Positions 5,724-26,961 of a stretch of DNA of 27,221 bases are shown in pieces. A model generated the notes under the pieces. It had not been told where the DNA came from. It was given only the letters and a program-made list of their open reading frames with translations, and did not search any database. Position 1 is the first letter of the stretch. The number at the start of each line of letters is the position of its first letter. Position numbers and translations under genes: made by a program. This DNA comes from an uncultured Acidimicrobiia bacterium (GTDB lineage Bacteria; Actinomycetota; Acidimicrobiia; Acidimicrobiales; AC-14), in contig CAWIIV010000003.1 in NCBI GenBank assembly GCA_963836205.1, forward strand, positions 1 to 27,221, given 5' to 3'.

Positions 5724-6014
5724 TCACGGGTGGTGGAACGAGGGGGCGCCGGGGACGAGGAAGGCGACCTCGTCGACGTAGCACCACCACCACTCCTCAC
5801 CGGGCTCGTAGGTCTGGATCAGGGGGTGGGCGGTGCTGCGGAAGTGGGCGGTGGCGTGGCGGTTGGGGGAGCTGTCGCAGCAGCCCACGTGGCCGCACGC
5901 CATGCACAGCCGCAGGTGGACCCACCGCCCGCCGATGGCCAGGCAGTCCTCGCACCCGTCGGCGTGGGGCGAGACGGCGGCGGCCTGGTCGAGATGGGTG
6001 CAGGTGTCGGGCAT
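5724..6014 (-). CDS. UBP-type zinc-finger protein, 96 aa
   Basis: CTHL, GCEDC, WVHLRLCMACGHVGCCDSSPNRHATAH and EPGEEWWWCYVDE motifs; ATG at 6014. Confidence 0.9.
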   Translation of the reverse strand: MPDTCTHLDQAAAVSPHADGCEDCLAIGGRWVHLRLCMACGHVGCCDSSPNRHATAHFRSTAHPLIQTYEPGEEWWWCYVDEVAFLVPGAPSFHHP

Positions 6015-6031
6015 GGGTCCCCTCTGGTGTA

Positions 6032-7432
6032 TCAGCCTCGGGCGCAGGATGTTCCCGGACGGCGGGCGGCGGTCGACCAGTCGGGATCGTCGGTGCGGGG
6101 CCAGTAGTCGCCGGTCCCCGGGTCCTGGTCGTAGGGGACGGGCGGGTCGTCGCCACCGGCGATGGCGGCTACGGCGGCCAGGAAGCGGTCGATGTCGGCC
6201 GCAGTGGTCGACAGCCCGGCGCTGGCCCGCACCGCGCCCGGGATGTGGCGCCGGTCGCCCCGAAGCACGGCCGACCGGTACGAGGCGACCTCGCCCTCGT
6301 CGAGGCCGAGCAGGCGCAGGAGGTAGGGGTGGGCGCAGAAGCACCCGTGGCGGACGCCGATGGCGTGCTCCGCGCTCAGCCGGGCCGCGACCAGGGCGTG
6401 GTGGACGCCGTCGACCACGAACGTGGCCAGGGGCAGGGTGGGCGCCCCCAGGGCCGGGCCCAGCAGGTGCACGCCGTCGATGGCGGCCAGCCCGTGGCGG
6501 AGGCGGTCGGCCATGGCGTCGTCGTGGGCGACGATGGCGGGCCAGCCGAGCTTGGCCAGCTCGTCGATGGCGGCGTGGAGGGCGATCGCGCCCACGACGT
6601 TGGGCGAGCCCGCCTCCTCCCGCTCGGGCGGGTCGGTCCACACCACCTCGTCGAGGTCGACCAGGTCGACGGCCCCCCCGCCGGCCAGGAAAGGGTCGCC
6701 CGTCTCGAAGGTCGACCGGGGGCCGACCAGGACGCCCCCGCCGTAGGGGGCGTACATCTTGTGGCCGCTCCAGGCGAGGAAGTCGGCGCTGGCGGGAAGC
6801 GGGCGGTGGGCCGCCAGCTGGGCCGCGTCGACCAGCACCGGGATTCCCCGCTCGTGGGCGGCGGCCACGATGTCGTCGGTGGGTGGAATCCAGCCGGTGA
6901 CGTTGGACGCACCGGTGACGGTCAGCAGCCGGGGCCGGGGCCCGTCGTCGAGGACGGCCGCCACGTCGTCGGCGTCGAAGGTGCCGTCGGGCCGGCACTC
7001 CACGTACCGGCGGCGGGCCAGGCGGGCCCAGGGGAGGAGGTTGGCGTGGTGCTCGACGACGGTGGTGACCACGACGTCGTCGGGCGCCAGCCGCAGCCGG
7101 TAGGCGAGGTGGTTGACGGCCTCGGTGGTGTTGCGGCAGATGATGGCCACGTCGGTGGCCTCGTTCTTGCCGGCGAAGGCGAGGGCCGCGGCCCGGGCCT
7201 CCTCGTACTCGGCGGTGGCGAGCTGCGACTTCCACCCCGCCCCCCGGTGCACGCTCGAGTACTGGGGCATGAAGTCGGCGACCCGCTGGGCGACGGCCGG
7301 CAGGGCACTGGTGGACGCGGCCGCGTCGAGGGACAGGTAGGGCCGCTGGAGACCGTCGATGCAGGGTGCGCTCAGGCCGTCGCCGACCAGCTCGACGCCG
7401 AGACTGTCGCCTTCCGGCGCCTGATCCGGCAC
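6032..7432 (-). CDS. Class V aminotransferase, SufS-type cysteine desulfurase-like
   Basis: LDAAAST, YSSVHRG, EHHANLLPW, DAAQ, SGHKMYAP (PLP Lys), EAGSPN, RHGCFCAHP (catalytic Cys motif). Confidence 0.9.
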   Translation of the reverse strand: MPDQAPEGDSLGVELVGDGLSAPCIDGLQRPYLSLDAAASTSALPAVAQRVADFMPQYSSVHRGAGWKSQLATAEYEEARAAALAFAGKNEATDVAIICRNTTEAVNHLAYRLRLAPDDVVVTTVVEHHANLLPWARLARRRYVECRPDGTFDADDVAAVLDDGPRPRLLTVTGASNVTGWIPPTDDIVAAAHERGIPVLVDAAQLAAHRPLPASADFLAWSGHKMYAPYGGGVLVGPRSTFETGDPFLAGGGAVDLVDLDEVVWTDPPEREEAGSPNVVGAIALHAAIDELAKLGWPAIVAHDDAMADRLRHGLAAIDGVHLLGPALGAPTLPLATFVVDGVHHALVAARLSAEHAIGVRHGCFCAHPYLLRLLGLDEGEVASYRSAVLRGDRRHIPGAVRASAGLSTTAADIDRFLAAVAAIAGGDDPPVPYDQDPGTGDYWPRTDDPDWSTAARRPGTSCARG

Positions 7433-7438
7433 GCCCCC

Positions 7439-7444
7439 ATTCTA
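7439..7444 (-). promoter_or_regulatory. -10 element for a leaderless desulfurase transcript
   Basis: TAGAAT 6 nt upstream of GTG 7432 on the minus strand. Confidence 0.55.
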
Positions 7445-7498
7445 CCGGCCACCCGTATTTCGGTGGCACGTCCCGGGGGGGTCGGCGAAGCTCAGGCC

Positions 7499-10336: not shown

Positions 10337-10455
10337 CCCTCCCAAGGAGATGGCGGGCCGCGGGTTAGGCCTGGGGGCACCATGGCCAGGTTGAGGCACA
10401 GACGCCTAGGGCACTCATCACCCCGAGTTACCTCACAAGATGTATGCTTATCTGC

Positions 10456-10650
10456 ATGCGGAGCACCAGCGTTCGCATCGATGTAGCCACACACGAAGAG
10501 CTCAAACGACTTGCCGCGGAACTCAACACCACGGTCGGCAACACCGTGTCCCTTGCAGTTCGCGCGCTTCGCCAAGACCGCGTCGGCGCGGACCTCGCGG
10601 CACCGCTTCGTGAGAACGAGACTGCCTGGCTCGATGCCGACGTCGGGTGA
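10456..10650 (+). CDS. Putative type II antitoxin, ribbon-helix-helix-like, 64 aa
   Basis: TSVRIDVATHEELKRLA beta-alpha start; acidic tail WLDAD; overlaps the toxin gene; TATGCT -10 (10443-10448) lies 7 nt before ATG 10456. Confidence 0.75.
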   Translation: MRSTSVRIDVATHEELKRLAAELNTTVGNTVSLAVRALRQDRVGADLAAPLRENETAWLDADVG

Positions 10651-10975
10651 TGTCGTCGATCTCGAGCTAGGCCCGCCGGAAGGACGAGAGGCGGGATTCC
10701 GCCATCCAGCGATCCTCGTTACGGCCGAACGAATCCTCGATGCCCGACCCTCGGTCGTCCACGTCGTCCCGCTTACGAGCAACATTCGCTCGTTCCACTC
10801 CGAGGTGGTGCTCGAGCCCGACAGCAGCAACGGCCTCGACGTCGCATCGGCGGCGCAGTGCCAGCACATCCGAGCCGTCTCGCCACATCGGATCATCGAC
10901 GTACGCGGCAACGTCGGCACGACCGTGCTGAGCCAGCTGCGCGAGACCATCGCCGTCATCCTCGATCTGCCCTGA
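10634..10975 (+). CDS. mazF: PemK/MazF-family endoribonuclease toxin, 113 aa
   Basis: GDVVDLELGPPEGREAGFRHPAILV, VVPLTS, NGL...SAAQCQHIRAVSPHRI. Confidence 0.9.
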   Translation: MPTSGDVVDLELGPPEGREAGFRHPAILVTAERILDARPSVVHVVPLTSNIRSFHSEVVLEPDSSNGLDVASAAQCQHIRAVSPHRIIDVRGNVGTTVLSQLRETIAVILDLP

Positions 10976-11434
10976 CGACGACAACGTCGCGCGATATGGC
11001 ACGAGAGCGCCACCCGTAGCCGTCGTTCTGGTCGCGCTTGGGGACGTAGCGATGCGAGGATCGCGAGCCCGTCGTGCGTCGCCTACCCGATCGCAGCTAA
11101 TCCGCGTAGCCCGCGAGAGCGGAGTTGAACTACGTCGATGGACGTCGTCACTATCGCCGTCAACGACAACGAAAGGCTCGGCTTCGCCATGGAGGACAGC
11201 GCCCGGTCGCGGGAGAGGTGCTCGTCCGTTCCGGACATCCAGCTGCTGAGTCTCGCAGCGAACCTCGCTCGCGAGGACGCCGATTTCCCATCGCTGGGAC
11301 CATGGAAGCGAATACGCCCGACGACCCCGTCGGGGCCTCTATGTCTTCCGTTCCTCCTGCACGCTCCTCGTCATGCTGGGCTGGCCGCGGCCTGACGTGT
11401 CGCCCGCGTATGCTCACTGGCGTGACTCCATTAC

Positions 11435-12703
11435 GTGGAACGCTATCCGAGCGCTAACGGGGTGGATCCTTACGACGTCTTCGTACCGGCTGGCTTACCG
11501 ACCATCACCTACAACCCACGCGAGTCGACTGGATTAGAAGACAAGATCCGGCAATACCTCAGGGCGCCGCATAGTATCCTGACAATCTCCGGTCACACAA
11601 AAAGCGGTAAGACCGTATTGTTGAAGAACGTCCTCACCGACGAGCACGTCTGGCTTGAGGGCTCATCGATCAGTTCGGAGAAGGATATCTGGACGCAGCT
11701 CGCTTACGCCATGGGCATATACGAGACGGAGCATTCCAGTTTGACTCACTCGACGGCGGATGACTCCGGACGCTCGGCCGGACTCAACGTTCCAGTTGCG
11801 CAGACGTCGCGTTCACATCAAGAGCGTGAAAGCATCGAGAGGTCTCGGGACCACACGCGAGTGGTACCCGTACAGGCCTCCGTCATCAACAAATTGAAGC
11901 GCTCGCCAATTCCGATAGTAATCGACGACTTTCATTTTGTCAGTGGCGAGACGCAGGAAAGGTTTGTACGCGGCATTAAGCCTTGCCTCCTCCACGGGCT
12001 GCCCGTTGTCTTGCTTGTAGTACCTCACAAAGCGAATGAGGCGGTTCAGGCAGAACCGGAGATGAGCGGTAGAGTCACGAATGTCCGGGTGCCGCCCTGG
12101 CGCGCCGACGAGCTGCGACGAATCGCCCAACTTGGGTTTAGCGCACTCAACGTCGAGCTGTCCGAGGGCTTGATGGACGACTTTGTGGATCAGTCTGCCG
12201 GTAGCCCGCTACTAATGCAGCAGTTCTGCCTTCAAGTCCTGATCTCCAGTGGGCGCCGTAGCGTTGTGTCGGGCATTACACACCTATCTCTCGCCGATCG
12301 AAGCGAATTCTTTGTTCAATGTGCGGAGGCTCTGACGGTTTCGATGGACTTCTATCGGATGTCGAGAGGTTCTCTCCGTGGCTCCGGAAGCAGGAAACAA
12401 ATGCTCGGCTCCTGGGGAGAAGAGGCCCGCGATATCTACGGGGTGGTCATGAACGCGATCACTGAGTGCTCTCCGAGTAACGCCATCACGTACCGACAGC
12501 TTCGAGCCTCGTTGGCCAGGTCGATCCGACCGGAGGACATGCCACGAAAGAACCAAGTTACAAGAGCCCTCCGTGAAATAGATAAGATTGCACGGCAGTC
12601 AACCGGGTCGCCGGTTCTTGAATGGGATGCGCGCGACGAGGTCCTTTACATTGTGGACCCGTTCTTCGCCTTTTTTGTCCATTGGGTGGCGCCAGGACTG
12701 TGA
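11435..12703 (+). CDS. P-loop (AAA+/STAND-like) ATPase with probable C-terminal winged helix
   Basis: Walker A GHTKSGKT, Walker B IVIDDFH, GSPLLMQ GxP helix, C-terminal VLEWD...LYIVDPFF. Confidence 0.85.
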   Translation: MERYPSANGVDPYDVFVPAGLPTITYNPRESTGLEDKIRQYLRAPHSILTISGHTKSGKTVLLKNVLTDEHVWLEGSSISSEKDIWTQLAYAMGIYETEHSSLTHSTADDSGRSAGLNVPVAQTSRSHQERESIERSRDHTRVVPVQASVINKLKRSPIPIVIDDFHFVSGETQERFVRGIKPCLLHGLPVVLLVVPHKANEAVQAEPEMSGRVTNVRVPPWRADELRRIAQLGFSALNVELSEGLMDDFVDQSAGSPLLMQQFCLQVLISSGRRSVVSGITHLSLADRSEFFVQCAEALTVSMDFYRMSRGSLRGSGSRKQMLGSWGEEARDIYGVVMNAITECSPSNAITYRQLRASLARSIRPEDMPRKNQVTRALREIDKIARQSTGSPVLEWDARDEVLYIVDPFFAFFVHWVAPGL

Positions 12704-12756
12704 CGGAAGGACACGCACGCAAGCGATGACAACTCACTACTGGAAGACATCCACTC

Positions 12757-13869
12757 ATGGGTAAGACGCATCGAGTACTGCTAATTACGACGGGCGGATC
12801 ACTCATCGCTGGCCTAGTCGCATCGGAACGAGGTCATTCCTCGCACGGTGGTAAGGATGCCGATGTTGAGCGGCTCGTTAGCCCTGCGATCGACTTTCTA
12901 AACCGCCAGTTCGGCCTTAACATAGAGTTGGAAACTGTCGCACTGTACGACATTGAGAGTTCTGATCTCGGACCGACGCATTGGAGCGAACTCGCTGGCC
13001 TGATCGCAGAGCGCTATGATGACTACGACTCCTTTATTGTCTTCCACGGGCGCAGCACATTAGGTTATACGGCGGCGGCCCTCTCATTCGCGTTAGCGAA
13101 TCCCAACAAGCCTATCTTGTTGACGGGATGCCAGCTGCCGTTTGGTGTGCCGGGCTCAGACTGTCTCAGCAACATTGAGAACGCACTCCGCCTGGCCGTT
13201 TGGAGCCGACACGATCGAGTTCCACTGGTCGGTGTCTTTGTCGTGTGGGGAGGCGAAGTCATCACTGGAACCCGAGTGAGAAATACTTCATCGACTTATG
13301 ACTCGTTCGAGTCGTCTAGCTTAGGAAAAGTTGGGCGAGTGGGTCGCGTGATCACCATCAACGAGTTGAGCCTCCAGCGCCACCTTGGCTATCTAAGTAC
13401 CAACATGTATCCTCGAGCCCATTCAAGTAGAAGCTTGATATGCCAAAACGACTTTGACATGCGGATCGCCTCGCTGACGGAGTTTCCCGGCATGTCGATG
13501 ACGCAACTGAGCAGGCTTGCCAACGACGACGACGTCAAGGGTTTCATCATTCGTTCGTTCGGAGCGGGGGCGCCAAGTTCCGACCTGATTCGGACCCTCG
13601 AGCACTTAAGAGATCGGCAGATACCCGTAGTCATCACTTCACAAACGGAATATGAGATCAGCAACTTCCTCGCGAACGAGTCCGGAATTGTTCTTCGTAA
13701 TAGGAGTCTCGCTATTCCTGCGTACGACATGAGTATTGAAGCTCAGACGACGAAGTTGGGTTGGTTACTCGCCCGCCAGCGGTCCGGCCAGATTGGGTAC
13801 GAGGGAGTTTGTGCTGAGATGGTTCATGATTTGCGCGGGGAAATCCAGGTCATGTGGGACGTCGGATGA
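12757..13869 (+). CDS. Type I L-asparaginase-fold protein with degenerate active-site motifs
   Basis: LLITTGGSL, IESSDL, HGRSTLGYTAAALSF, KPILLTGCQ, FGAG, IPVVITSQ, DMSIEAQTTKLGWLL, DLRGEI are collinear with AnsA-type enzymes. Confidence 0.85.
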   Translation: MGKTHRVLLITTGGSLIAGLVASERGHSSHGGKDADVERLVSPAIDFLNRQFGLNIELETVALYDIESSDLGPTHWSELAGLIAERYDDYDSFIVFHGRSTLGYTAAALSFALANPNKPILLTGCQLPFGVPGSDCLSNIENALRLAVWSRHDRVPLVGVFVVWGGEVITGTRVRNTSSTYDSFESSSLGKVGRVGRVITINELSLQRHLGYLSTNMYPRAHSSRSLICQNDFDMRIASLTEFPGMSMTQLSRLANDDDVKGFIIRSFGAGAPSSDLIRTLEHLRDRQIPVVITSQTEYEISNFLANESGIVLRNRSLAIPAYDMSIEAQTTKLGWLLARQRSGQIGYEGVCAEMVHDLRGEIQVMWDVG

Positions 13870-13889
13870 ATCGATCAGGACGGCGGGAC

Positions 13890-14054
13890 TCAGGACGCGT
13901 CTTCCGGCATCCCCATCGCTACATTTGGCCAGCCGAACTAGACCAGATGGGTCGCATCGCTGGCTTCACGCTCGAGAGCCGCCACGGCGGCTGGAACGCT
14001 GAGCCCTTCACGGCGGACTCATCGGATCACGTACCCATCTATCGCGTCGCCTGA
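13890..14054 (+). pseudogene. 3' fragment of an actinobacterial class I SAM methyltransferase
   Basis: HRYIWPAELDQMGRIAGFTLESRHGGWNAEPFTADSSDHVPIY matches the C-terminal pattern I recall for that family; no SAM-binding N-terminus. Confidence 0.65.
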
Positions 14055-15966: not shown

Positions 15967-17004
15967 GTGCCCCGGCTCCCCCCCCGCCGCAAAACCCACG
16001 GCCGACACCCCCGCCGCAGCCGGGCCCTGGCCGCCATCGGCCGCACCCCCCTCGTCGACGTCGCCCTGCGGGTGGACGGCCGGTGGCGCCGGGTGGGGTT
16101 GAAGCTCGAGTCGCACAACCCGGCCGGCTCGATCAAGGACCGGACGGCGTACTCCCTGATCCGCAGCCTGGAACGCATGGAGGAGCTGCGGCCCGGTGAC
16201 CGCCTGGTCGAGTCCACCTCGGGAAACCTGGGGGTTGCGCTGGCCCTGATCAGCCGGGAGCGGGGCTACACCTTTACCGCGGTCGTCGATCCCAAGGTCG
16301 ACCCGCTGGTCGTCGATCGGATCCACGGCCTGGGGGCGGAGGTCGTCCTGACCGACGAGGTCGACGCCACCGGCGGCTACCTGCTGTCGAGGCTCCGGTT
16401 GGTGGAGCAGATGGTGGCCGAGGACGGCACGGTCTGGCCCAACCAGTACGGCAACCCGGCCAACCCGGCGGTCCACTACCACCACACCGCACCCGAGGTC
16501 CGCCGCCAGGCGCCCGACGTCGACGCGGTGTTCGTGGCCACGTCGACCGGCGGCACCCTCGCCGGCTTCGGCCGCTACTTCAAGGCCGTCAGCCCGCGGG
16601 TCCGGGTGGTGGCGGTCGACGTGCCCGGCTCGCTGGTGTTCGGCACCACCTACGCCCCCCGCCTGCTCAACGGGGTGGGGTCGAGCCGCGCCTCTCAGTT
16701 CCTGAGCCCCGCCGACTACGACGACGTCGTCATCGTAGGCGACAGGGACGCCGTCGCCGCGTGCCACCTCATCCAGGGGTCGGTGGGCATCGGGCTGGGC
16801 GGCTCGTCGGGGGCGGTGGTGGCTGCCTGCGCCCGCTACCTGTCCGCCCATCGCGAGGTGCGACGGGCCGTGTGCATCTGCCCCGACGGGAGCGCCAACT
16901 ATGCCAGCAGCATCTACGGCACCTCCTGGCTGGCCCGGTTCGGCTTCCGCCCGGAGAAGGACGCGGCCGAGCTTCCCTTCGACGACGCCGTACTGGCCCG
17001 GTGA
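15967..17004 (+). CDS. sbnA: SbnA-like PLP enzyme of the cysteine synthase family (2,3-diaminopropionate biosynthesis)
   Basis: KLESHNPAGSIKDR, ESTSGNLG, SbnA-type GGYLLSRL, WPNQYGN, GSLVFG...GVGSSR, GGSSG. Start uncertain: GTG 15967 after GAGGAG, or ATG 15904. Confidence 0.85.
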   Translation: MPRLPPRRKTHGRHPRRSRALAAIGRTPLVDVALRVDGRWRRVGLKLESHNPAGSIKDRTAYSLIRSLERMEELRPGDRLVESTSGNLGVALALISRERGYTFTAVVDPKVDPLVVDRIHGLGAEVVLTDEVDATGGYLLSRLRLVEQMVAEDGTVWPNQYGNPANPAVHYHHTAPEVRRQAPDVDAVFVATSTGGTLAGFGRYFKAVSPRVRVVAVDVPGSLVFGTTYAPRLLNGVGSSRASQFLSPADYDDVVIVGDRDAVAACHLIQGSVGIGLGGSSGAVVAACARYLSAHREVRRAVCICPDGSANYASSIYGTSWLARFGFRPEKDAAELPFDDAVLAR

Positions 17005-18059
17005 GCGGCAACGGCGCCGGAGGCGCAACCCGCCCGCTGGAGAACGGCCTGCTCTACCTGAGCGAGGATGACGTCGATCAGGCCTGCCGGGAGGTCGACC
17101 CGGTGGCGTGTGTCGCCGACGCGCTGGCCCGGCTGGCGGCGGGTGAGGCCGAGGTCCCCGACGAGGCGGTGCTGCGCTGGGACCCCCGAGGCGGAGGCAT
17201 GGCCCGCACCCTGAACATGCCCGGGTTCATCGCCGGCCCGGTCCCGGTCCTGGGCACCAAGATCATCAACGCCAGCACCGAGAATCCCAGCCGGGGCCTG
17301 CCCCGGGCGGCCGGCCTGACCCTGCTGTTCAATCCCGTCACCGCCCGCCCCGAGGCGATCATCCAGGCCGCCGGCATCAGCGCCCTGCGGACGGCGGCGG
17401 TGTCGACCCTCGCCGCCCTCCACCTGCGCACCACCGGCCCCCAGACCCTGGGGGTCATCGGCGCCGGCCCCATCGCCCGGGCCCATGTCCTGCTGCTGGC
17501 GGAGCACATCGACCTCGAGCGGGTGCTGGTGTGCGACCACGCCACCGACCGGGCCCTCGGCCTCGTCCACCAGCTGCGGGAGGAGCCGAGGATCAGGCAG
17601 GTCGAGGAGCGGAGCGACCCGGAGAAGACCGTCCGCGACGCCACCATCGTGGTCACCGCCACCACGACCACCACCGCCTACGTCTGCCACGACTGGCTGC
17701 GGCCGGGCGCGGTGGTCGTCAACGTGTCCCTCGACGACGTGGAGGAGGAGGCCTACCTGCGGGCCGACCGGCTCTACGTCGACCATTGGGGCCTGGTCGT
17801 GGCCGACACCCAACGGCTGCTGGGCCGCCTGGCGCGGGCGGGCAAGGTCTGCGGACCGGGAGAGAGCGGCGAGGCCGGCGCCCGCCCGGTGGACGGGACC
17901 CTGGGCCAGTTGGTCACCGGAGCCTGCCCGGCTCGGGACGACGACGGCCAGATCATGCTCGTCAACCCCTTCGGCATGTCGATCGAGGACCTTTCCATCG
18001 CCAGCCGGGTCTACGAGATCGCCCTGCTCCGCAACTACGGTCTGTTCCTCGACCAGTGA
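17001..18059 (+). CDS. sbnB: SbnB-like ornithine cyclodeaminase/mu-crystallin family protein, 352 aa
   Basis: GTGA coupling; LLYLS, NMPG, NPSRGLPRA, ISALRTAAVS, GAGPIA, VNPFGMSIEDL. Confidence 0.8.
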   Translation: MSGNGAGGATRPLENGLLYLSEDDVDQACREVDPVACVADALARLAAGEAEVPDEAVLRWDPRGGGMARTLNMPGFIAGPVPVLGTKIINASTENPSRGLPRAAGLTLLFNPVTARPEAIIQAAGISALRTAAVSTLAALHLRTTGPQTLGVIGAGPIARAHVLLLAEHIDLERVLVCDHATDRALGLVHQLREEPRIRQVEERSDPEKTVRDATIVVTATTTTTAYVCHDWLRPGAVVVNVSLDDVEEEAYLRADRLYVDHWGLVVADTQRLLGRLARAGKVCGPGESGEAGARPVDGTLGQLVTGACPARDDDGQIMLVNPFGMSIEDLSIASRVYEIALLRNYGLFLDQ

Positions 18060-18983
18060 CCGCCCGCAGCATCATCTCCCTCGAGGACATCTCCACCGAC
18101 GACCTTCGCTGGCTGGCGCACCGGGGGTGTGCCTATGCCGAGGGCGCGGCCGTCGAGCGGGTGCTCTCCGGGCGGGTGGTGGCCGTCTACTTCCGGCAGA
18201 CCTCCACCCGCACCCGCACCGCCTTCTCCGCCGCCGCCCTCCGCCTGGGAGCCCAGAATCCTCACCTTCGGGCCCCACGACCTCCAGACCAACACCGGCG
18301 AGACCTACCTCGACACCGGCCGGGTGCTGGCCACCATGGTCGACGCCCTGGTGGCTCGCACCGCGGGCGACCCCGATGAGCTGCGCGACTTGGCCGCCCA
18401 GGGCCGGATGCCGGTCGTCAACGCCATGACATCCGACGAGCACCCGACCCAGGCCGTCGCCGACCTCGCCACCCTGCTCCAACACTTCGGACGTATCGAC
18501 CACCTGCGGGTCCTCTACCTGGGGGAGGGCAACAACTCCGCCTCCGCCCTGGCCCTGGCCCTGTCCCGGTTCCCCGGAAACGAGCTCTACCTGCGGACTC
18601 CTGCCGGCTACGGCCTGGCCGACGACAAGTTGAAGCTGGCGTGCGGCCACGCCGACGAGACCGGGAGCGTGGTCGACGAGCGTCACGACCTGGAGGGGCT
18701 CCCGGAGGCGGTCGACGCCGTCTACACCACCCGCTGGCAGACGACGGGCACCGCCAAGCCCGATCCCGACTGGCACGAACGCTTCCGGCCCTTCCAGGTG
18801 AACGACGACCTGATGGCTCGCTGGCCCGACGCCCGGTTCCTGCACGACCTGCCCGCCCACCGGGGCGAGGAGGTCACCGCCGAGGTGCTCGACGGCCCCG
18901 CCAGCCTGGCCCTGCCCCAGGCGGCCAACAAGTACCACACCGCCCTGGCCATCCTCGAGTGGTGCCTGGCCGGACCCCGATGA
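18056..18983 (+). CDS. OTC-fold carbamoyltransferase, frameshifted near 18257
   Basis: From GTG 18056 the frame gives TSTRTRTAF...LGAQ; removing one A at 18257-18258 continues into ILTFG...EHPTQ...GEGNN...TTRWQTTG...HDLPAHRGEEV...QAANK. Confidence 0.85.
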
Positions 18984-19897
18984 CCGCGGCCTGCCTCGAC
19001 CGGGTGTCGGCCTACCGCCACCTCACCGTCGCCGACCGGGACCCGCCCGACCGTCGGGGCATCTTCTTCGACCCGATCGACACCGAGGTCGGCGCCTGGG
19101 CGACCGTCGACCTGGTCGAGGAGGGGTCCACCGTCCTCGACCTCGGATCGGGCGGCGGCGCCGCGGCCGCGGCGGTGGCCAGGGCCGGGGCGGCCCACGT
19201 CCACGGCGTCGACATCTCCGAGGAGAGCGTCCGGTGGGCGTCGGAGCACCATGCCCTCGACGGGCCCGCCCGGCGGGTCACCTTCGGGCCGGCCGACTAC
19301 GCCTCGCTGACGACCTCCGCCCTGCTGGCGGCCACGCCCCTGTCCCGACCCCCGGACGTGGTGGCCAGCAACCCGCCCTACGTGCCGGTCCCACCGGTCG
19401 ACGGCTCGGGACGGGTCTCCATCGACGGCGGCCCCGACGGTCTCCGCCTGGTGCGGATCGTGGTCGGCCACGCCGAGGCGCTCGGGTCGGCGCTGTCGCT
19501 CACCATCGGCAGCTACTCCTCGCCCCGGCGGGCGGCTGCGTTGCTGGCCGGCTGCGGCTACCGGATCGCGGGCGTCACCCTGGCCGCGCTTCGCCTGGGC
19601 GACTACACCGTGCAGCACATGGACCGCGTCCTCTCCCTCGAATCGGCGGGGGAGGGACCCCTGCTGCGCACCGACGACGGCGCCGTCTCCTACCTGTGCG
19701 TGGGGCTCTCCTGCCGCCGGGACGCCGCGGACGACGCCGACGGCGGGCTCTCTCCGGACGGGTTGCTCCGCCTCCTCGACCATGCCTGCCGATCGCGGAC
19801 CACCCACCTGGAGGCCCTCGACCGGGCCACCGCCGCCTGCCCCGTCCCGGTGCGGGTGCTGGTCCTGCCCGAGGAGCACCGGCGTCACCATTGCTGA
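18980..19897 (+). CDS. Class I SAM methyltransferase, HemK/MTS-like, 305 aa
   Basis: ATGA coupling; VLDLGSGGG, GVDIS, SNPPYVP, DGGPDG. Confidence 0.85.
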   Translation: MTAACLDRVSAYRHLTVADRDPPDRRGIFFDPIDTEVGAWATVDLVEEGSTVLDLGSGGGAAAAAVARAGAAHVHGVDISEESVRWASEHHALDGPARRVTFGPADYASLTTSALLAATPLSRPPDVVASNPPYVPVPPVDGSGRVSIDGGPDGLRLVRIVVGHAEALGSALSLTIGSYSSPRRAAALLAGCGYRIAGVTLAALRLGDYTVQHMDRVLSLESAGEGPLLRTDDGAVSYLCVGLSCRRDAADDADGGLSPDGLLRLLDHACRSRTTHLEALDRATAACPVPVRVLVLPEEHRRHHC

Positions 19898-21021
19898 ACC
19901 TGACCGTGGGCGTCGAGGAGGAGTTCTTCGTGGTCGACGCCGCCACTCGCGAGCTGGCGGTCGACGCCACGCCGGTCCTCGCCGCCCTCGGCGGGCCCGG
20001 TACCGGATACCCGAGCTTCGCCGACGAGTTCCGGCTGAGCATGGTCGAGAGCCGGACCAGCCCGTGCGCCCGCCTGGACGGGCTGCGGTCCGAGCTGGCC
20101 ACCCTCCGCCGGCAACTCGCGGGGGCGGCGGCTGCGACCGGCCACCGGGTCGTCGCGGCCGGCACCGTCCCCCTGGGCGATTGGCGGAAGCAGGTGGTCA
20201 ACCCCAAGCCCCGGTTCCTCCAGGTGGCCCGCGACTACGCCCGCCTGGCCGACGAGCACGTGGTCTGCGGGTGCCACGTCCACGTCGGCATCGACGACCG
20301 TGACCTGGCCGTCGAGGTCATGAACCGGGTCCGGCCGTGGCTGCCCGTCCTCCTCGCCCTCTCGGCCAGCTCCCCGTTCTGGATCGGGGAGGACACCGGC
20401 TACGACAGCTACCGGAGCGTCGTCATGGGCCGATGGCCCCTCTCCGGAGTGCCTCCCCTCTACGACTCCTTCGAGGCCTACACCCGGTCGGTGCAGGCGG
20501 TGATCGACGCCGAGGTCGCGGTCGACGTCCGCCAGGCGTTCTGGGACGTGCGGCCGGGGGTCACCCACGAAACGCTCGAGTTCCGCGTCGCCGACTCCTG
20601 CCCGTCGGTCGACGACACCATCCTCCAGGCCGGCCTCGGCCGGGCCCTCGTGGGGACCTGCCTGGACGAGATCGACCGGGGCCGGCCGGCCACCGACCAC
20701 CCCTCCGAGCTGCTGCGGGCGGCCCGGTGGCGGGCGGGGCGATTCGGCCTGGGCGACCGCCTGCTCGACGCGCTCACGGGCGAGCTGCTGCCGGCGGCCA
20801 CCGTGGTGGACCGGTTGGTCGCGCACGTGGCCGATGCCCTGGAGCAGTCCGGCGACCGGGACGAGGTGACCACGCTCGCCGAGCAGGCCGTGCAAGGAGG
20901 GTCGTCGGCGGCACGCCAACGGGCCCGGCTGGCCCAGACCGACGACCTCGTGACGGTGGTCGACCTGCTGGCGGACGAGACGGCCCGGATCGAGGGATCT
21001 CAGAGATCGGAGCGACAGTGA
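19891..21021 (+). CDS. YbdK-family carboxylate-amine ligase (GCS2, glutamate-cysteine ligase-like)
   Basis: TVGVEEEF, CGCHVHVG, LALSASSPFW, WDVRP, TLEFRVAD; TTG start at 19891. Confidence 0.9.
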   Translation: MLNLTVGVEEEFFVVDAATRELAVDATPVLAALGGPGTGYPSFADEFRLSMVESRTSPCARLDGLRSELATLRRQLAGAAAATGHRVVAAGTVPLGDWRKQVVNPKPRFLQVARDYARLADEHVVCGCHVHVGIDDRDLAVEVMNRVRPWLPVLLALSASSPFWIGEDTGYDSYRSVVMGRWPLSGVPPLYDSFEAYTRSVQAVIDAEVAVDVRQAFWDVRPGVTHETLEFRVADSCPSVDDTILQAGLGRALVGTCLDEIDRGRPATDHPSELLRAARWRAGRFGLGDRLLDALTGELLPAATVVDRLVAHVADALEQSGDRDEVTTLAEQAVQGGSSAARQRARLAQTDDLVTVVDLLADETARIEGSQRSERQ

Positions 21022-21251
21022 CGAACGAGGTCGAGGCGACCATCACGGCCTATCCCGACGGCCCCTACCTGGTGCGCGGGTGCTACACGATCGTCGACGT
21101 CGACGGGACCGTGATCGAGACGGCGCGCCGCACGGTGGCCCTCTGCCGCTGCGGCCGCTCGGGTCAGAAGCCCCTGTGCGACGGGTCGCACGCGGCCTCG
21201 TCGTTCAGGGACTCGGCGCGGCGCCAACGGGCCGATCGGCCCCGTCCCTGA
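21018..21251 (+). CDS. CDGSH iron-sulfur domain protein, 77 aa
   Basis: DGPYLVRG...ALCRCGRSGQKPLCDGSH; GTGA coupling. Confidence 0.9.
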   Translation: MTNEVEATITAYPDGPYLVRGCYTIVDVDGTVIETARRTVALCRCGRSGQKPLCDGSHAASSFRDSARRQRADRPRP

Positions 21252-22281
21252 CCCGCAGCGACGACTCGCCCCGGGCCCAGCAGCCCAGCACGTACTCCGC
21301 GAACAAGCCGTCGACGGCCGCGCCCACCGCCGCGCCGAACACCATGTCGCCGACCAGGCGGGGGTCTTCGGCCGCCAGCGCCCCCGCCAGGTCGTGGAGG
21401 GTGATCATGTCGTGGATGGAGTCGGCCAGGACGTGCTCGTCGAAGAAGTCGGTGGCGTCCGGCCCGTAGCCCAGGCGGCGCAGGGTGTCGGCAGATCGTT
21501 TGGTGGAACTGGCCGAGGTCAGCTCGCCGATGACCAGGTGACCGACGGCGGCCCCCCGCAGGCGGCGGTGGAGGCCGAACATCGACATGAGGTTGACCGT
21601 GGCCAACGTGGGCCCGGGAAGGCAGTCGAGGTAGGCGCCGTAGCGACCGTCGAGCCCGACCGCCTCCATGGTGTTGCGGAAGAGCTGGGCGTGGATGCGC
21701 TCGGCCCGCCCGCAGCCGTACTCGTCGAACGCGACCTCGAGCATGGCGCCCTTGGCCTTGCCCTCGAGCCGGGGGATCACCCACGACTGGGGGTCGAACT
21801 CCTTGAGCTGGTAGGCGGACTTGTGGACCAGGAACTCCGCCATCTCCGCCCGGGTGCCGGCCTCCTTGAGGTGGCGGGAGATCGACGGCCCCGGCTGGTT
21901 GGCGATGCGGCTGAGGAGGACCGCGCTGTCGCCCCCCTCCGTCGGGACCAGGTGACCGAAGCGGGCCCGCAGCGCCGACTCGAAGGCCTGCTCCAACGCC
22001 CGGCGGAAGCCGAGCAGGGCCGGGCTCCACTCCCAGCCGTCGTCGACGTGGGCGAAGCCCCGGTAGTGGGTCTCGTAACAGACATACAACGCCAGCTGGA
22101 AGTCGTCGTCCGCCACCGGGTCGACGCCATCGATGACGGGAGCGTCGAACCGGTCGCTGTCCACCGGCGGCCGTCCGAGCACCTCGAACAGCCACCCGGT
22201 GAGGGGGCCACGGGGAGGCGGCAGGGGCGGGTCCCGACGGTCGACCGGAGCTGCCACGGTGGCCTCCTGGCCCACGCTCAT
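21205..22281 (-). CDS. Heme-oxygenase-like diiron oxidase (iron-containing redox enzyme family)
   Basis: LYVCYETHYRGF, DEYGCGRAERIH (E-x9-H), GELTS, EHVLADSIH (H-x3-D-x2-H). Confidence 0.88.
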   Translation of the reverse strand: MSVGQEATVAAPVDRRDPPLPPPRGPLTGWLFEVLGRPPVDSDRFDAPVIDGVDPVADDDFQLALYVCYETHYRGFAHVDDGWEWSPALLGFRRALEQAFESALRARFGHLVPTEGGDSAVLLSRIANQPGPSISRHLKEAGTRAEMAEFLVHKSAYQLKEFDPQSWVIPRLEGKAKGAMLEVAFDEYGCGRAERIHAQLFRNTMEAVGLDGRYGAYLDCLPGPTLATVNLMSMFGLHRRLRGAAVGHLVIGELTSASSTKRSADTLRRLGYGPDATDFFDEHVLADSIHDMITLHDLAGALAAEDPRLVGDMVFGAAVGAAVDGLFAEYVLGCWARGESSLRVRDGADRPVGAAPSP

Positions 22282-22313
22282 GACCGCAGACGCCGGGGGA
22301 CGGCCGCCCAGGC

Positions 22314-22331
22314 AGGCCCGGTGACGGCCCC
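22314..22331 (+). repeat. 18-bp inverted repeat, copy 2
   Basis: AGGCCCGGTGACGGCCCC; partner at 15378-15395 on the minus strand. Confidence 0.5.
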
Positions 22332-22337
22332 CGCCGT

Positions 22338-22346
22338 TGCTACCAT
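22338..22346 (+). promoter_or_regulatory. Extended -10 element
   Basis: TG-C-TACCAT about 100 nt upstream of TTG 22446; a hairpin follows at 22391-22414. Confidence 0.35.
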
Positions 22347-22445
22347 CGGAAGCGCCGGCGGACGAGCAGGCCGGCCGTCTGGTGCGCCGCGTGACGGAGC
22401 CCCGCTCCCGTCACCGATCGACAGGCTCGGGCAGGAAGGTGGTCG

Positions 22446-23168
22446 TTGAGACCGATTATCGGCGTTGGGGCCTACCCACGCGTCGTCGAGACGCCGTTCG
22501 GGCCGACGCTGCTGCAGACCGCCACCCGCTTCAACGTCCGGGCCATCGAGCGGGCCGGGGGGGCGGTGGTCATCCTGCCGGTGACCGAGGCGGCTCGCCT
22601 CCGCGACGTGCTGGGCATGGTTCACGGCGTGCTGCTACCCGGCGGCGGCGATGTCAACCCCTCGCTGTACGGGGCGGTGCCGATGGACTGCACCCGCGAC
22701 GTCAACCCCGAGCGCGACGCCTTCGAGATCACCCTGTTCGAGGACGCCCTGACCTCCGGGCTTCCGGTCCTCGGGATCTGCCGTGGCATGCAGCTCATGA
22801 ACGTCGCCCTGGGGGGCACGCTCCTCCAGGACGTCTCCGCCGCCACCGGCCAGTTCCACTGGAACCCGGGCCAGTGGCGGGAGGGGTCGCACCGGATCAA
22901 GATCGAGCCCCACAGCCGCCTGGCCGAGGCCCTGGGAGAGACGGAGGTGGCGGTGAACTCGATCCACCGCCAGGGCATCGACCGGCTGGCGACCGGCATT
23001 CGGGCGGTGGCCTGGGCCGACGACGGCTCCGTCGAGGCGGTCGAGTCCGAGGGAGATTCGGCGTTCCTCGCCGTGCAATGGCACCCCGAGATCCTCGAAG
23101 ACCTCCCCGAGCAGCGGGGCATCTTCGACGCCTTCGTGGAGCAGGCCCGCCGCTACGCCGACGGCTGA
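22446..23168 (+). CDS. Gamma-glutamyl-gamma-aminobutyrate hydrolase family (PuuD-like, peptidase C26)
   Basis: LLPGGGDV, PERDAFE, GICRGMQ, VNSIHRQ, VQWHPE; Cys-His-Glu triad intact. Confidence 0.9.
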   Translation: MRPIIGVGAYPRVVETPFGPTLLQTATRFNVRAIERAGGAVVILPVTEAARLRDVLGMVHGVLLPGGGDVNPSLYGAVPMDCTRDVNPERDAFEITLFEDALTSGLPVLGICRGMQLMNVALGGTLLQDVSAATGQFHWNPGQWREGSHRIKIEPHSRLAEALGETEVAVNSIHRQGIDRLATGIRAVAWADDGSVEAVESEGDSAFLAVQWHPEILEDLPEQRGIFDAFVEQARRYADG

Positions 23169-24769: not shown

Positions 24770-24888
24770 CCGAAGCGCGTTGACACGAACCGCCGATTCC
24801 TTCTAGATCAAGAGGCGTCCCGGCCGGCAACAGAATCGGCCGGCCGGGCGTCAGGGTGGGTGGCAAGGCCGACGAGCGGAGGCTTTCG

Positions 24889-26961
24889 ATGACGACGGGG
24901 CGCAGGGTGCGGGGCCAGGCCGCCGTCGTCACCTTCCTGGCCGTCGCCCTAGTGGCGTTCGGCGCCTGCGGCCAGGGCTCACGGAAGGCCGACGCCAGCC
25001 TCGAGGAACGGATCGACGCCCTGGCCGCGGAAGGACTCGTCGCCGGTCCGCTGGCGGGCATGTCGATCGCGGTCGTCCGAGATGGGCGGACCGTCGTGTC
25101 GAAGGGCTATGGCCTGGCCGATGTCGACCGAGGGATCCCGGCGACGGAGGACACCGTCTACCGCATCGGCTCCCTCACCAGGCAGTTCACCGCCGCCGCC
25201 GTCCTCCAGCTGGTCGAGGCGGGGCAGCTCAGCCTCGACGACGACCTCGCCACGTCGCTTCCCGACTTCCCCAGCAAGGGACGTCGCGTCACCGTCCGGC
25301 ACCTCCTCAACCACACGTCGGGGATCAGGAACCACACCGACCTGCCGGGGGGCCGGGCCGAAGCGGGCACCACCCTCCAGTCGGTGGTCGACCTGATTGC
25401 CGCCCAGCCGTTCGACTTCGACCCGGGCCAGCGCTTCCGCTACTCGAGCTCGGACTACGTCCTCCTCGGGCTCGTCATCGAGAGGGTCACCGGCGGCAGC
25501 TACGCCTCGTACCTCGACGACCACGTCCTCGAGCCCCTCGGACTGCGGCAGACGTCGTATTGCCCGGACGGGCCGGAGGGGTCGGGACAGGCCCGTGGCT
25601 ACGCAGTGGCCGACGGGGAGTTGGTCGACGCCCCGCCCATCGAGATGGCGGTGCCTTTCGCCGCCGGGGGGCTGTGCTCGACGGTGGGTGACCTGATGAC
25701 CTGGAGTCAGGCGTTGCGCGACGGGCGAGTCGTCTCCGACGCGTCGTACCGGCTGATGACGACGCCCACCGAGCTGGCCGACGGGACCACCGAGCCCTAC
25801 GGGTTCGGCCTGACGATGGCTCCCCTCCAGGGCCACGCCGCGGAGTTCGACTCCGGCTCCACCACCGGCTTCATGGGCAGCCTCACCTTCTTTCCCTACG
25901 CGTCGGTCACGGTCGCACTCCTGGCCAACACCCAGATCGAGGGGTCCGGACTCGGTCCGCTGGCCGCTCCGGTCGACGCCGCCGCCCTCGGCATCGCCGA
26001 GGACCCCATCCGTCTCGATGCCACCACCCGAGGGCAGGTGATCGATGCCGTGCTCTCCCGAATTCGGGACGGGTACGTCTTCCCGGACCGGGCCGAGGAG
26101 ATGGAGCGAGCCGTTCGCGCCCGCCAGGCGGCCCACGAGTACGACGACGTGACCAGCGGCCCTGCCCTGGCCCGGCTCCTCACGGCCCACCTCCAGGAGG
26201 TGAGTCACGACAAGCACCTGCACGTCGACTACTTCTTCGGCGCGCTCGGCCCCGTCGGGTCGCCGCCCGACCAACAGCAGATGGCGGAGCGGGCCCATTT
26301 CGGCGTCGAGCGCGTCAACCGCCTTCCGGGCAACGTCGGCTACATCAACCTGACCGGGTTCGTTCCCGCGGAGGGAGTGGAGGCGGCGGTGGCGGAAGCG
26401 ATGGCGGCCGTGCACGACGCCGATGCCCTGATCTTCGACCTTCGGGACAACGGCGGTGGCGACCCGCGCATCGTGGCCCTGATCAGCTCCTATCTCTTCG
26501 GGGAGGAGCCCGTGCACCTCAACGACATCTACCGGCGACAGGGAGTGCTCCCCGAGCAGCTCTGGACGCAGCGGGACGTCGTCGGGCCGCGCTTCGGCCC
26601 CGACAAGGCTGTCTACGTCCTGACCAGCAGATTCACCTTCTCGGCCGCGGAGGCGTTCGCCTACGACCTGCAGGCCCTCGGGCGGGCCACCATCGTGGGG
26701 GAGACGACAGCCGGGGGCGCCCACCTGAGCGACGCCGGACCGCTCGTTCTCGGATTCGACATGTTGCTTCCGACCGGGCGGGCAGTGAGCCCCGTCACGG
26801 GGACCGACTGGGAGGGCACCGGTGTGATCCCCGACGTGCCGGTGTCGGCCGCCTCCGCCCTCGACACGGCGACGTCGATGGCCCGCCAGGCGCTCGCCGA
26901 GGGACTCACGGGGGCGATCGGCGACGAAACGGTCGCTGCCCCCTCCAACCCGGCCCCGTGA
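24889..26961 (+). CDS. Lipoprotein: beta-lactamase/AmpC-like domain fused to an S41 peptidase, 690 aa
   Basis: GGAGG SD before ATG 24889; FGAC lipobox; YRIGSLTRQF, LLNHTSG, AAGGLCST; then DLRDNGGG, TFSAAE, GETTAGG, WEGTGVIPD. Confidence 0.88.
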   Translation: MTTGRRVRGQAAVVTFLAVALVAFGACGQGSRKADASLEERIDALAAEGLVAGPLAGMSIAVVRDGRTVVSKGYGLADVDRGIPATEDTVYRIGSLTRQFTAAAVLQLVEAGQLSLDDDLATSLPDFPSKGRRVTVRHLLNHTSGIRNHTDLPGGRAEAGTTLQSVVDLIAAQPFDFDPGQRFRYSSSDYVLLGLVIERVTGGSYASYLDDHVLEPLGLRQTSYCPDGPEGSGQARGYAVADGELVDAPPIEMAVPFAAGGLCSTVGDLMTWSQALRDGRVVSDASYRLMTTPTELADGTTEPYGFGLTMAPLQGHAAEFDSGSTTGFMGSLTFFPYASVTVALLANTQIEGSGLGPLAAPVDAAALGIAEDPIRLDATTRGQVIDAVLSRIRDGYVFPDRAEEMERAVRARQAAHEYDDVTSGPALARLLTAHLQEVSHDKHLHVDYFFGALGPVGSPPDQQQMAERAHFGVERVNRLPGNVGYINLTGFVPAEGVEAAVAEAMAAVHDADALIFDLRDNGGGDPRIVALISSYLFGEEPVHLNDIYRRQGVLPEQLWTQRDVVGPRFGPDKAVYVLTSRFTFSAAEAFAYDLQALGRATIVGETTAGGAHLSDAGPLVLGFDMLLPTGRAVSPVTGTDWEGTGVIPDVPVSAASALDTATSMARQALAEGLTGAIGDETVAAPSNPAP

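Follow-up and report, generated by a model that had tools for sequence, protein, structure and literature searches.

Background

Pathways that use L-2,3-diaminopropionate (Dap) and depend on nonribosomal peptide synthetases (NRPS) or NRPS-independent siderophore (NIS) synthetases include those of viomycin, zwittermicin, staphyloferrin B and alanosine. Dap transcarbamylases (DPTCases), which are marked by (T/S)RWQTTG together with HDLP, form beta-ureidoalanine (PMC4581275, in excerpt). SznE and SznF of streptozotocin biosynthesis are an N-methyltransferase and a heme-oxygenase-like diiron oxidase (HDO) with N-oxygenase activity, which act on an amino-acid side chain, that of methyl-arginine (PMC11705231, in excerpt). 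Here we describe a cluster of seven genes, with an eighth beside it, on contig C3 (CAWIIV010000003.1) in a metagenome-assembled genome (MAG) of an uncultured Acidimicrobiia bacterium from soil. The entire contig of 27,221 bases was analysed and is called the window. Its cluster joins a pair of Dap synthase-like genes and a putative DPTCase gene to genes for a methyltransferase (MT), a YbdK-type ligase, a CDGSH iron-sulfur protein and an HDO. Judging from the sequence, we favour with moderate confidence its interpretation as an NRPS-independent specialised-metabolite operon that would convert serine-derived Dap into a small modified amino acid. The product would most likely be an N-methylated, N-oxygenated ureido-alanine, possibly glutamylated.

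Sequence signatures mark Dap synthesis and Dap carbamoylation, and we infer N-methylation, N-hydroxylation by the HDO together with the CDGSH protein, and glutamylation. A more specific proposal, that the cluster makes N-hydroxy-N-methyl-ureido-alanine, free or as a glutamyl dipeptide, and that the CDGSH protein is the dedicated physiological reductant of the HDO, is offered tentatively and is rather unlikely to hold in all its parts. A preliminary description of this DNA had proposed a small free Dap derivative, for example a methylated or N-oxidised albizziine. The DPTCase signature and the exchange of the HDO for an AurF-type enzyme, both described below, largely support this, except that the end product could be a glutamyl conjugate.

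Recurrence and variants of the cluster

All seven genes, from the SbnA-like to the HDO gene, are present in 10 of 10 loci of the HDO type. Besides the window and a second contig of the same MAG (C16), these comprise four genomes of the same genus or family (G001, G003, G004, G016) and two metagenome contigs (L061, L062), in all of which the order is kept, as well as another Actinomycetota MAG (L002) and a Streptomyces-like complete genome (L055), in which the genes are rearranged. The seven-gene arrangement is not due to chance, since the same genes recur in these genomes and metagenome contigs. According to the preliminary description, its proposal would fail if the two halves of the cluster never co-occurred elsewhere; they do so, with all seven genes, in nine other loci.

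A different version of the cluster is found in three further Streptomyces-like loci, L056, L057 and the degenerate L058, which have the order MFS-SbnA-AurF-like-SbnB-DPTCase-MT and hold neither HDO nor CDGSH gene. The AurF-like protein of the L056-type cluster has AurF as its best match in the PDB (4e-11). OTC-like (ornithine carbamoyltransferase-like), MT and AurF-like genes also stand together in a distant metagenome version (L064), and L059 contains DPTCase-MT alone. The cluster is composed of two modules that are also found apart, SbnA/SbnB/DPTCase/MT and YbdK/CDGSH/HDO. Because a non-homologous diiron N-oxygenase of the AurF type fills the same slot, the HDO step points to N-oxygenation of the Dap-derived product, and we regard this exchange, observed at the level of sequence, as the best available argument for such a role of the HDO.

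The neighbourhoods of the individual versions vary. On the flanks of the L055 cluster are genes for a PanD-type aspartate decarboxylase, a DUF4246 protein (L055:4829-5254 and L055:13666-15087) and a TetR regulator, none of which is found in the Acidimicrobiia versions. Possible exporters adjoin the SbnA-like gene in several loci, namely MMPL-family transporters in G004 (L031:3548-5770) and G003 (L033:13992-16217) and MFS transporters in the AurF-type Streptomyces-like clusters; the window copy lacks them. The MAG of the window (G000) encodes an AurF-like protein of its own, 38% identical to that of L056 and located away from Dap genes (G000:C8:101930-102820). Genes of a class I ribonucleotide reductase (small subunit and ATP-cone/large subunit N-terminus, L002:3-1688) directly adjoin the MT gene of the L002 cluster, which is intriguing if the product is hydroxyurea-like. 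We rejected the reductase as a hint of resistance, since it adjoins the cluster in L002 only and has no homologue in the other loci searched or in G000.

Gene layout in the window

The MAG has a size of 4.05 Mb in 25 contigs and is 88.6% complete; among named relatives, the nearest is a MAG from an uncultured member of the Acidimicrobiia (L001, which denotes the same place as G001). Genes were called from the third-position G+C frame plot and start-codon mapping, followed by Pfam and NCBIfam scans. The family scans covered 35 open reading frames (ORFs), a part of all those in the window. The cluster and the gene beside it read as follows:

15967..17004, plus strand: SbnA/CmnB-like pyridoxal phosphate (PLP) enzyme; PALP (PF00291), best NCBIfam model TIGR03945 (SbnA family)
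17001..18059, plus strand: SbnB/CmnK-like NAD-dependent dehydrogenase; OCD_Mu_crystall (PF02423), best model TIGR03944 (SbnB family)
18056..18983, plus strand: OTC-fold carbamoyltransferase, the putative DPTCase; OTCace_N and OTCace, split over two frames
18980..19897, plus strand: class I S-adenosylmethionine (SAM) MT with NPPY motif, weakly and distantly PrmC/HemK-like; Methyltransf_25/31 and PrmA matches
19891..21021, plus strand: YbdK/GCS2-family carboxylate-amine ligase; PF04107, NF010041
21018..21251, plus strand: 77-aa CDGSH [2Fe-2S] protein; zf-CDGSH (PF09360)
21205..22281, minus strand: HDO, convergent; Haem_oxygenas_2 (PF14518)
22446..23168, plus strand: Peptidase_C26 / class I glutamine amidotransferase-like gamma-glutamyl hydrolase; PF07722, membership of the pathway doubtful

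The six co-oriented genes from SbnA-like to CDGSH overlap start to stop at five consecutive junctions, with the SbnB-like start overlapping the SbnA-like stop by 4 nt, and the 3' ends of the CDGSH and HDO genes overlap by 47 nt. Frame plot and family matches thus bear out the eight genes of the preliminary description in their order and orientation, six of them co-oriented and overlapping and the HDO gene convergent. Its statement that adenylation, carrier, NIS-synthetase and exporter genes are missing likewise holds for the ORFs scanned, none of which matches adenylation, carrier, NIS-synthetase or transporter families; nor was a regulator, resistance gene or exporter seen among them. A comparison of the whole window with Rfam, in which a riboswitch or other upstream RNA was sought, gave no match at E <= 0.1. 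Promoter-like sites were not found, and the single terminator-like site is no more than expected by chance.

The flanks of the window encode a NiFe hydrogenase, a histidine kinase, a class V aminotransferase, a DUF2237 protein, an EEP-family protein and a beta-lactamase/S41 fusion. The class V aminotransferase frame (6032-7432) overlaps a second frame on the minus strand (5724-7469) with a zf-UBP zinc finger in its N-terminal part; the third-position G+C signal shifts phase near 6000, where another frameshift may exist. The fusion (24856-26961) is a 701-aa protein with a serine beta-lactamase-fold domain joined to a Peptidase_S41 domain, and the copy on C16 is interrupted by an indel of 1 base.

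Predicted supply and carbamoylation of diaminopropionate

The first two enzymes would supply Dap. The SbnA/CmnB-like PLP enzyme would combine O-phospho-L-serine and L-Glu to N-(1-amino-1-carboxyl-2-ethyl)-glutamic acid (ACEGA), which the SbnB/CmnK-like dehydrogenase would convert to L-Dap and 2-oxoglutarate. The nearest solved structures of the SbnA-like protein (PF00291 at 1.3e-58) are CmnB (8if7, 4e-74) and SbnA (5d84, 4e-56), followed by cystathionine beta-synthase (9e-44); characterised Dap synthases hence rank ahead of cystathionine and cysteine synthases among solved structures. Those of the SbnB-like protein (PF02423 at 9.5e-41) are SbnB (4m54, 9e-52) and CmnK (7cxs, 8e-49), with the next match at 1e-25. 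TIGR03945 is the best of 31 models for the SbnA-like protein at 309.4 bits, under its equivalog cut-off of 349.95, and TIGR03944 the best of 23 models for the SbnB-like protein at 211.9 bits, under its cut-off of 326.9. The earlier assignment of the pair as Dap synthase is supported by these closest structures, and production of L-Dap by the two proteins is accordingly a supported prediction. The L002 cluster contains a different SbnA/SbnB lineage, only 35-37% identical, which passes both cut-offs (391 > 350; 372 > 327). This replacement suggests that the conserved requirement is the supply of Dap.

The third enzyme would transfer the carbamoyl group of carbamoyl phosphate to the beta-amine of Dap, giving beta-ureidoalanine (albizziine). 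Its intact allele on C16 carries the carbamoyl-phosphate motifs STRTR and HPTQ together with TRWQTTG and HDLP, of which TRWQTTG replaces the DxxxSMG of ornithine carbamoyltransferase (240s loop) and HDLP replaces HCLP. HDLP and TRW(Q/E/R)TTG are present in 12 of 12 cluster loci checked. Because the OTC-fold protein bears the published DPTCase signature, (T/S)RWQTTG plus HDLP, it is likely an L-2,3-diaminopropionate transcarbamylase and beta-ureidoalanine a likely intermediate; the carbamoylation of Dap suggested in the preliminary description gains support from the same signature.

The DPTCases of viomycin, capreomycin and zwittermicin feed peptide assembly, and the operon might likewise do no more than deliver a modified Dap block to assembly enzymes, an NRPS or others, whose genes lie elsewhere. 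Each DPTCase precedent that the review names serves a peptide assembly line (PMC4581275). Moreover, contig C23 of the MAG holds a small adenylation-methyltransferase-thiolation (A-MT-T), condensation (C) and reductase locus, and NRPS adenylation domains are present in several relatives. However, no adenylation, carrier or condensation gene was found among the window ORFs scanned, and none among the flanking ORFs scanned within ~7-10 kb in L001, L031-L033 and L055-L057. Of the four relatives that bear the cluster, G004 alone has an orthologue of the C23 NRPS over its full length (72% identical), and G016, which is 91% complete, has no match at E <= 1e-50 to the C23 NRPS query. The MFS and MMPL transporters adjoining some versions of the cluster are as expected for a free small molecule. 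Delivery to an assembly line hence appears improbable to us.

The C23 NRPS-like locus consists of A-MT-T, C with a TubC docking domain, a reductase and a sulfotransferase. About 4 kb from it lies a bacterial ORF with a MACPF/perforin domain and hemopexin repeats (L060:612-2099, that is G000:C23:120612-122099).

The methyltransferase

The favoured NRPS-independent route would continue with a methylation, in which the NPPY MT would N-methylate the planar ureido nitrogen, by analogy with the glutamine carboxamide that PrmC/HemK methylate. The MT reaches 53 bits with the PrmC model TIGR03534, whose cut-off is 199. A score so far below the cut-off implies that it is not a release-factor methyltransferase and belongs instead to a separate family, which comprises only 73 protein clusters among 5.8 billion. 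Of the NPPY motif, N131, P132 and Y134 do not vary among 34 homologues, and P133 hardly does. The predicted model has a predicted local distance difference test (pLDDT) score of 89, and its Foldseek matches are generic class I methyltransferases, including PrmC (2b3t), HemK (1vq1) and AerE (7rc5), the aeronamide N-methyltransferase.

The MT gene adjoins or lies near the DPTCase gene in every locus that holds it, and its distribution is patchy. Strong matches came from 4 of the 40 relatives, including 3 of the 7 that belong to the same genus; the sample of 400 Actinomycetota gave none, and the Streptomyces-like genus gave 6 among 401 genomes. The source names of homologues include S. tsukubensis, S. 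corynorhini, S. olivoverticillatus, S. huasconensis and Actinophytocola oryzae. A metagenome scan with the MT alignment kept 80 loci, among which only L061-L065 are members of the family, the others being generic methyltransferases.

The diiron oxidase and the CDGSH protein

The HDO has 358 aa with PF14518 as its only domain (4.4e-50; 170 bits, cut-off 28.9). Its nearest structures are SznF (6e-8) and HrmI (1e-5), the sole solved relatives found at E <= 1e-4 and both N-oxygenases. The alignment spans the central domain of SznF only, where E187, H197, E253, H283, D287 and H290, all invariant in 40 homologues, align with Glu215, His225, Glu281, His311, Asp315 and His318 of SznF. We take His225 and Glu281 of SznF to be metal ligands. 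The same role is described for its Glu215, His311, Asp315 and His318 (PMC7848743, in excerpt). A C-terminal cupin domain of the SznF type was not found in the HDO by the Pfam scan, and nitrosation of the SznF type is therefore not expected. The conserved diiron ligands, SznF and HrmI as nearest relatives and the AurF-type N-oxygenase that replaces the HDO module in sister clusters together strengthen the earlier suggestion that the HDO is an N-oxygenase.

The neighbouring CDGSH protein (PF09360 at 3.7e-19, 69 bits) contains the motif C-x-C-x2-S-x3-P-x-C-D-G-S-H, and its C43, C45, C54 and H58 are kept in all of 35 homologues. Gene pairs of HDO and CDGSH are widespread among actinobacteria: a CDGSH gene is close to the HDO gene in 32 of 39 loci (19 of 19 and 13 of 20). 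In 17 of 19 and 20 of 20 loci no Dap genes accompany the pair, and a YbdK-type gene joins it in 6 of these 37. A predicted complex of HDO and CDGSH, each with its alignment, scored 0.56, compared to 0.00 for the best control, with contact agreement of at least 92% between runs and a partner pLDDT of at least 80. We rate this as weak support: such a mark was attained by 116 out of 157 solved complexes and also by 2 out of 215 mismatches, but passing scores of up to 0.60 account for only 18 of the 157 solved complexes and for both mismatches that passed. To our knowledge, HDO enzymes generally have no established native electron donor.

Several Actinomycetota loci have a further gene between HDO and CDGSH. 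It is a family-2 glycosyltransferase-like gene of ~310-360 aa in L003:1699-2631, L007:1996-2973 and L011:11038-12093, and a gene without Pfam match in L010 and L013; these loci lack Dap genes. The glycosyltransferase-like gene hints at other substrates of HDO-CDGSH pairs.

The evolution of the HDO was followed in a quick maximum-likelihood tree of 44 HDOs, from which the duplicate loci L020-L024, L030 and L034, matches of less than 250 columns, and L061 and L062 were left out. The seven cluster-linked HDOs form one group with a support of 100 in the Shimodaira-Hasegawa-like approximate likelihood ratio test (SH-aLRT); their hosts are Acidimicrobiia, another Actinomycetota MAG and a Streptomyces-like genome. 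The HDOs resident in the Streptomyces-like genus fall outside this group. HDO source names include S. tsukubensis and S. corynorhini.

These distributions bear on the possibility that two independent units merely lie side by side, SbnA/SbnB/DPTCase/MT yielding (methyl)ureidoalanine and YbdK/CDGSH/HDO being a general actinobacterial module for an unrelated substrate. HDO homologues are common, with 64 of the 400 sampled Actinomycetota genomes (three unpublished) against none for the MT, and 37 loci have the HDO-CDGSH pair without Dap genes, 6 of them together with YbdK. Conversely, SbnA/SbnB/DPTCase/MT is found without HDO in L056 and L057, and DPTCase-MT stands alone in L059. What speaks against independence is that CDGSH is translationally coupled to the operon on the Dap side, that the seven genes stay together in all ten loci across distant hosts, that the cluster-linked HDOs are a branch of their own (SH-aLRT 100), distinct from the resident Streptomyces-like ones, and that where the HDO is missing, the AurF-type N-oxygenase sits inside the Dap gene set. 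We consider two separate units unlikely.

Alternatively, the HDO may belong to the pathway but perform another reaction, such as desaturation to dehydro-ureidoalanine, oxidative C-C cleavage/decarboxylation or ring formation including an N-N bond, in which case the product is not an N-hydroxyurea. The described reactions of the HDO family span olefin formation, C-C cleavage and nitrile, azetidine and acetylene formation, and the similarity to SznF and HrmI is remote (E 6e-8 and 1e-5). Tuberactinomycins contain a ureido-dehydroalanine residue, so the ureido scaffold can be desaturated. On the other side, the only solved relatives at E <= 1e-4 are N-oxygenases, and the stand-in enzyme of the sister clusters is an AurF-family N-oxygenase whose best PDB match is AurF itself (4e-11). 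A different HDO reaction is therefore given a low probability, on a par with that of two separate units.

If the HDO is the N-oxygenase of the favoured pathway, it would N-hydroxylate the methyl-ureido group, being re-reduced by the co-operonic CDGSH [2Fe-2S] protein. This step would yield an N-hydroxy-N-methylureido amino acid, hydroxyurea-like, in parallel to the action of SznE/SznF on methyl-arginine.

The YbdK ligase and the neighbouring hydrolase

The YbdK ligase (PF04107 at 2e-53; NF010041 at 364 bits, cut-off 332; TIGR02050 at 269, cut-off 176) is present in 10 of 10 clusters of the HDO type. It is absent from both intact AurF-type loci, L056 and L057; the degenerate L058 keeps a fragment of a YbdK gene. 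In the remaining step of the proposed pathway, the ligase would use ATP to join glutamate to the amino acid, which like cysteine is a beta-substituted alanine. Glutamylation may take place before oxidation, as a handle, or give the final dipeptide, and a glutamyl conjugate could thus be the end product. A YbdK-like ligase is described in a small thiohistidine-dipeptide operon and sets a recent precedent for non-proteinogenic amino-acid substrates (PMC13674229, in excerpt).

The C26 hydrolase (PF07722 at 5.8e-64) reaches 92.5 bits with the PuuD model NF008471, whose cut-off is 266. Its gene adjoins the cluster in 3 of 10 loci only (C3, C16, G001) and is absent next to the HDO in L055, L061 and L062. 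Orthologues with 65-71% identity lie ~60 kb off in G003, ~20 kb off in G004 and on other contigs in G016. The preliminary description had made this PuuD-like hydrolase part of a cycle of glutamyl protection and deprotection encoded by the cluster. Its adjacency in three of ten loci and the location of its orthologues elsewhere do not sustain that proposal: a glutamylation/deglutamylation cycle is unproven and core membership of the hydrolase doubtful. In this lineage, the neighbouring hydrolase may strip glutamate without being a core member.

The second copy and the frameshift

Positions 28398-41532 of contig C16 match positions 14087-27221 of C3 with 99.03% identity (119 mismatches, 8 gaps). 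Compared with C16, the window carbamoyltransferase contains one extra A at ~18257/18258, a +1 frameshift, and the window copy accordingly has no intact DPTCase reading frame. The C16 allele is an intact ORF of 308 aa, and the gene is in a single frame in G001, G003, G004, G016, L002, L061 and L062 as well; L065 likewise matches across the frameshift site. The extra base is either an assembly error or a strain allele, and an error is plausible because other frame errors occur in these assemblies. Among the public sequencing runs the best contained only 0.22 of the sampled words, and no contig of the four runs compared spans 18211-18304. The preliminary description had envisaged expression with the frameshift repaired. 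Such a repair is not needed, since the 99% identical C16 contig of the same MAG holds an intact allele.

An OTC-MT fusion, seen in the frame of G001 and in protein P0159, was considered as a Rosetta-stone link, treated as the result of frameshifts and not used as evidence. The OTC-MT junction reads like an out-of-frame translation of the usual C-terminus, and P0159 bears more frame errors.

The mismatches between C3 and C16 are unevenly spread, with 0 in SbnA/SbnB, 2 in the carbamoyltransferase and 78 in MT, YbdK, CDGSH and HDO together, which could reflect strain recombination or a mosaic assembly. The G+C content of the window is ~72%, except for 55-60% at 10.4-14.0 kb. This low-GC stretch (10400-14000) contains a 422-aa ORF without Pfam match (11435-12703) and an L-asparaginase gene (12757-13869). 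The end of contig C16 coincides exactly with the inner edge of this stretch, at C3 position 14087, which suggests a strain-specific insertion that broke the assembly.

Weighing the proposed pathway

Several points weigh against the NRPS-independent pathway as drawn here. Every catalytic step is read from sequence. Both Dap-synthase proteins of the window score below the NCBIfam equivalog cut-offs (309 < 350; 212 < 327), and the carbamoyltransferase of this very copy is frameshifted. The nitrogen methylated by the MT is a guess, given a PrmC score far under the cut-off and matches of the predicted fold that are generic (template modelling scores, TM, 0.4-0.5). HDOs also catalyse C-C cleavage, desaturation and rearrangements, the HDO tree comes from a quick search only, and the score of the HDO and CDGSH complex gives weak support only. 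HDO-CDGSH, with or without YbdK, is widespread without Dap genes and SbnA/SbnB/DPTCase/MT occurs without HDO-CDGSH; the two halves occur apart and therefore can work apart. Finally, the C26 hydrolase is not conserved together with the cluster, and an exporter was not found among the window ORFs scanned.

A primary or catabolic role (nitrogen storage, osmolyte, detoxification) instead of a specialised metabolite would agree with the absence of a regulator, resistance gene or exporter among the window ORFs scanned and with the glutamate synthase gene that adjoins the cluster in G001 and G003, but is very improbable in view of the patchy MT (4 of 40 relatives, 3 of 7 in the genus, 0 of 400 in the phylum sample, 6 of 401 in the Streptomyces-like genus) and of an HDO tree that cuts across taxonomy, which suggests horizontal spread of an accessory trait.

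Implications

Should the pathway be correct, serine would be turned into an N-oxidised ureido amino acid by a small route that needs no NRPS and in which the streptozotocin-like logic of methylation followed by N-oxygenation is applied to a urea scaffold. A hydroxyurea-type amino acid of this kind could act as a glutamine/asparagine antimetabolite, radical quencher or metal binder. The chemistry can be tested without the uncultured host, because cultured Streptomyces carry the cluster (the names S. tsukubensis and S. corynorhini appear on both MT and HDO homologues). The exchange of HDO/CDGSH/YbdK for an AurF-type enzyme is a natural experiment on two diiron scaffolds that solve the same step. 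The pairing of HDO and CDGSH in 32 of 39 loci provides a concrete candidate for the HDO electron donor; if the CDGSH protein is indeed the reductant, this role would hold for the many HDO-CDGSH pairs of actinobacteria as well and assign a function to bacterial CDGSH proteins.

Full-text literature yielded no paper on this gene set or on the CDGSH-HDO pairing; as subscription journals and MIBiG were outside its scope, a prior description is possible. Within the same scope, the remark of the preliminary description that the gene combination matches no recognised pathway stands. A proteomics paper on S. scabies names AurF, SbnA and SbnB, at separate loci (PMC11479980).

Comparison with known systems

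In the tuberactinomycin (viomycin/capreomycin) and zwittermicin clusters, genes for the supply of Dap and beta-ureidoalanine, CmnB/VioB, CmnK/VioK and the DPTCase genes VioL/CmnL, resemble the SbnA-type, SbnB-type and OTC-fold genes of the window, the last with (T/S)RWQTTG and HDLP. Among solved relatives, CmnB ranks first for the SbnA-like protein and CmnK second for the SbnB-like protein, and the likeness to VioL/CmnL rests on the signature published for DPTCases. By contrast, the window has no NRPS nearby and contains in addition MT, HDO, CDGSH and YbdK genes; we know of no such MT, diiron oxidase, CDGSH protein or YbdK ligase in tuberactinomycin or zwittermicin clusters. With the sbn operon of staphyloferrin B it shares the adjacent SbnA/SbnB-type pair, SbnB (4m54) being the best solved relative of the dehydrogenase, but no NIS synthetases (IucA/IucC) or siderophore transport genes are found among the window ORFs scanned. 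The Dap pathways of the NRPS and NIS type as a whole, viomycin, zwittermicin, staphyloferrin B and alanosine, differ in the same respect: adenylation, carrier, condensation and IucA/IucC genes are missing among the 35 window ORFs and the flanks scanned (L001, L031-L033, L055-L057).

The GCS2-family ligase and, in this lineage, the neighbouring C26 hydrolase recall the gamma-glutamyl handles of PuuA/PuuD and of EgtA/EgtC in ergothioneine biosynthesis. The hydrolase, however, is far below the PuuD cut-off (92 versus 266) and its linkage is not conserved, and PuuA is an enzyme of the glutamine-synthetase type, not GCS2. AurF and CmlI act on arylamines. The sister versions L056, L057 and L058 resemble AurF/CmlI-type clusters in holding an AurF-family gene between SbnA and SbnB, whereas the window has the non-homologous HDO with CDGSH and YbdK.

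SznE/SznF of streptozotocin differ from the window proteins in several respects. With 358 aa, the window HDO consists of a single domain and lacks the cupin by which SznF forms the N-N bond, and the similarity is remote (E 6e-8); the MT is likened to SznE by role only, and the putative substrate is a urea, not a guanidine. Both systems encode a methyltransferase and an HDO together, and the window HDO, with SznF as best PDB match, shares all metal ligands of the SznF central domain. The proposed substrate, methyl-ureidoalanine, would be a shorter urea analogue of N-omega-methyl-arginine.

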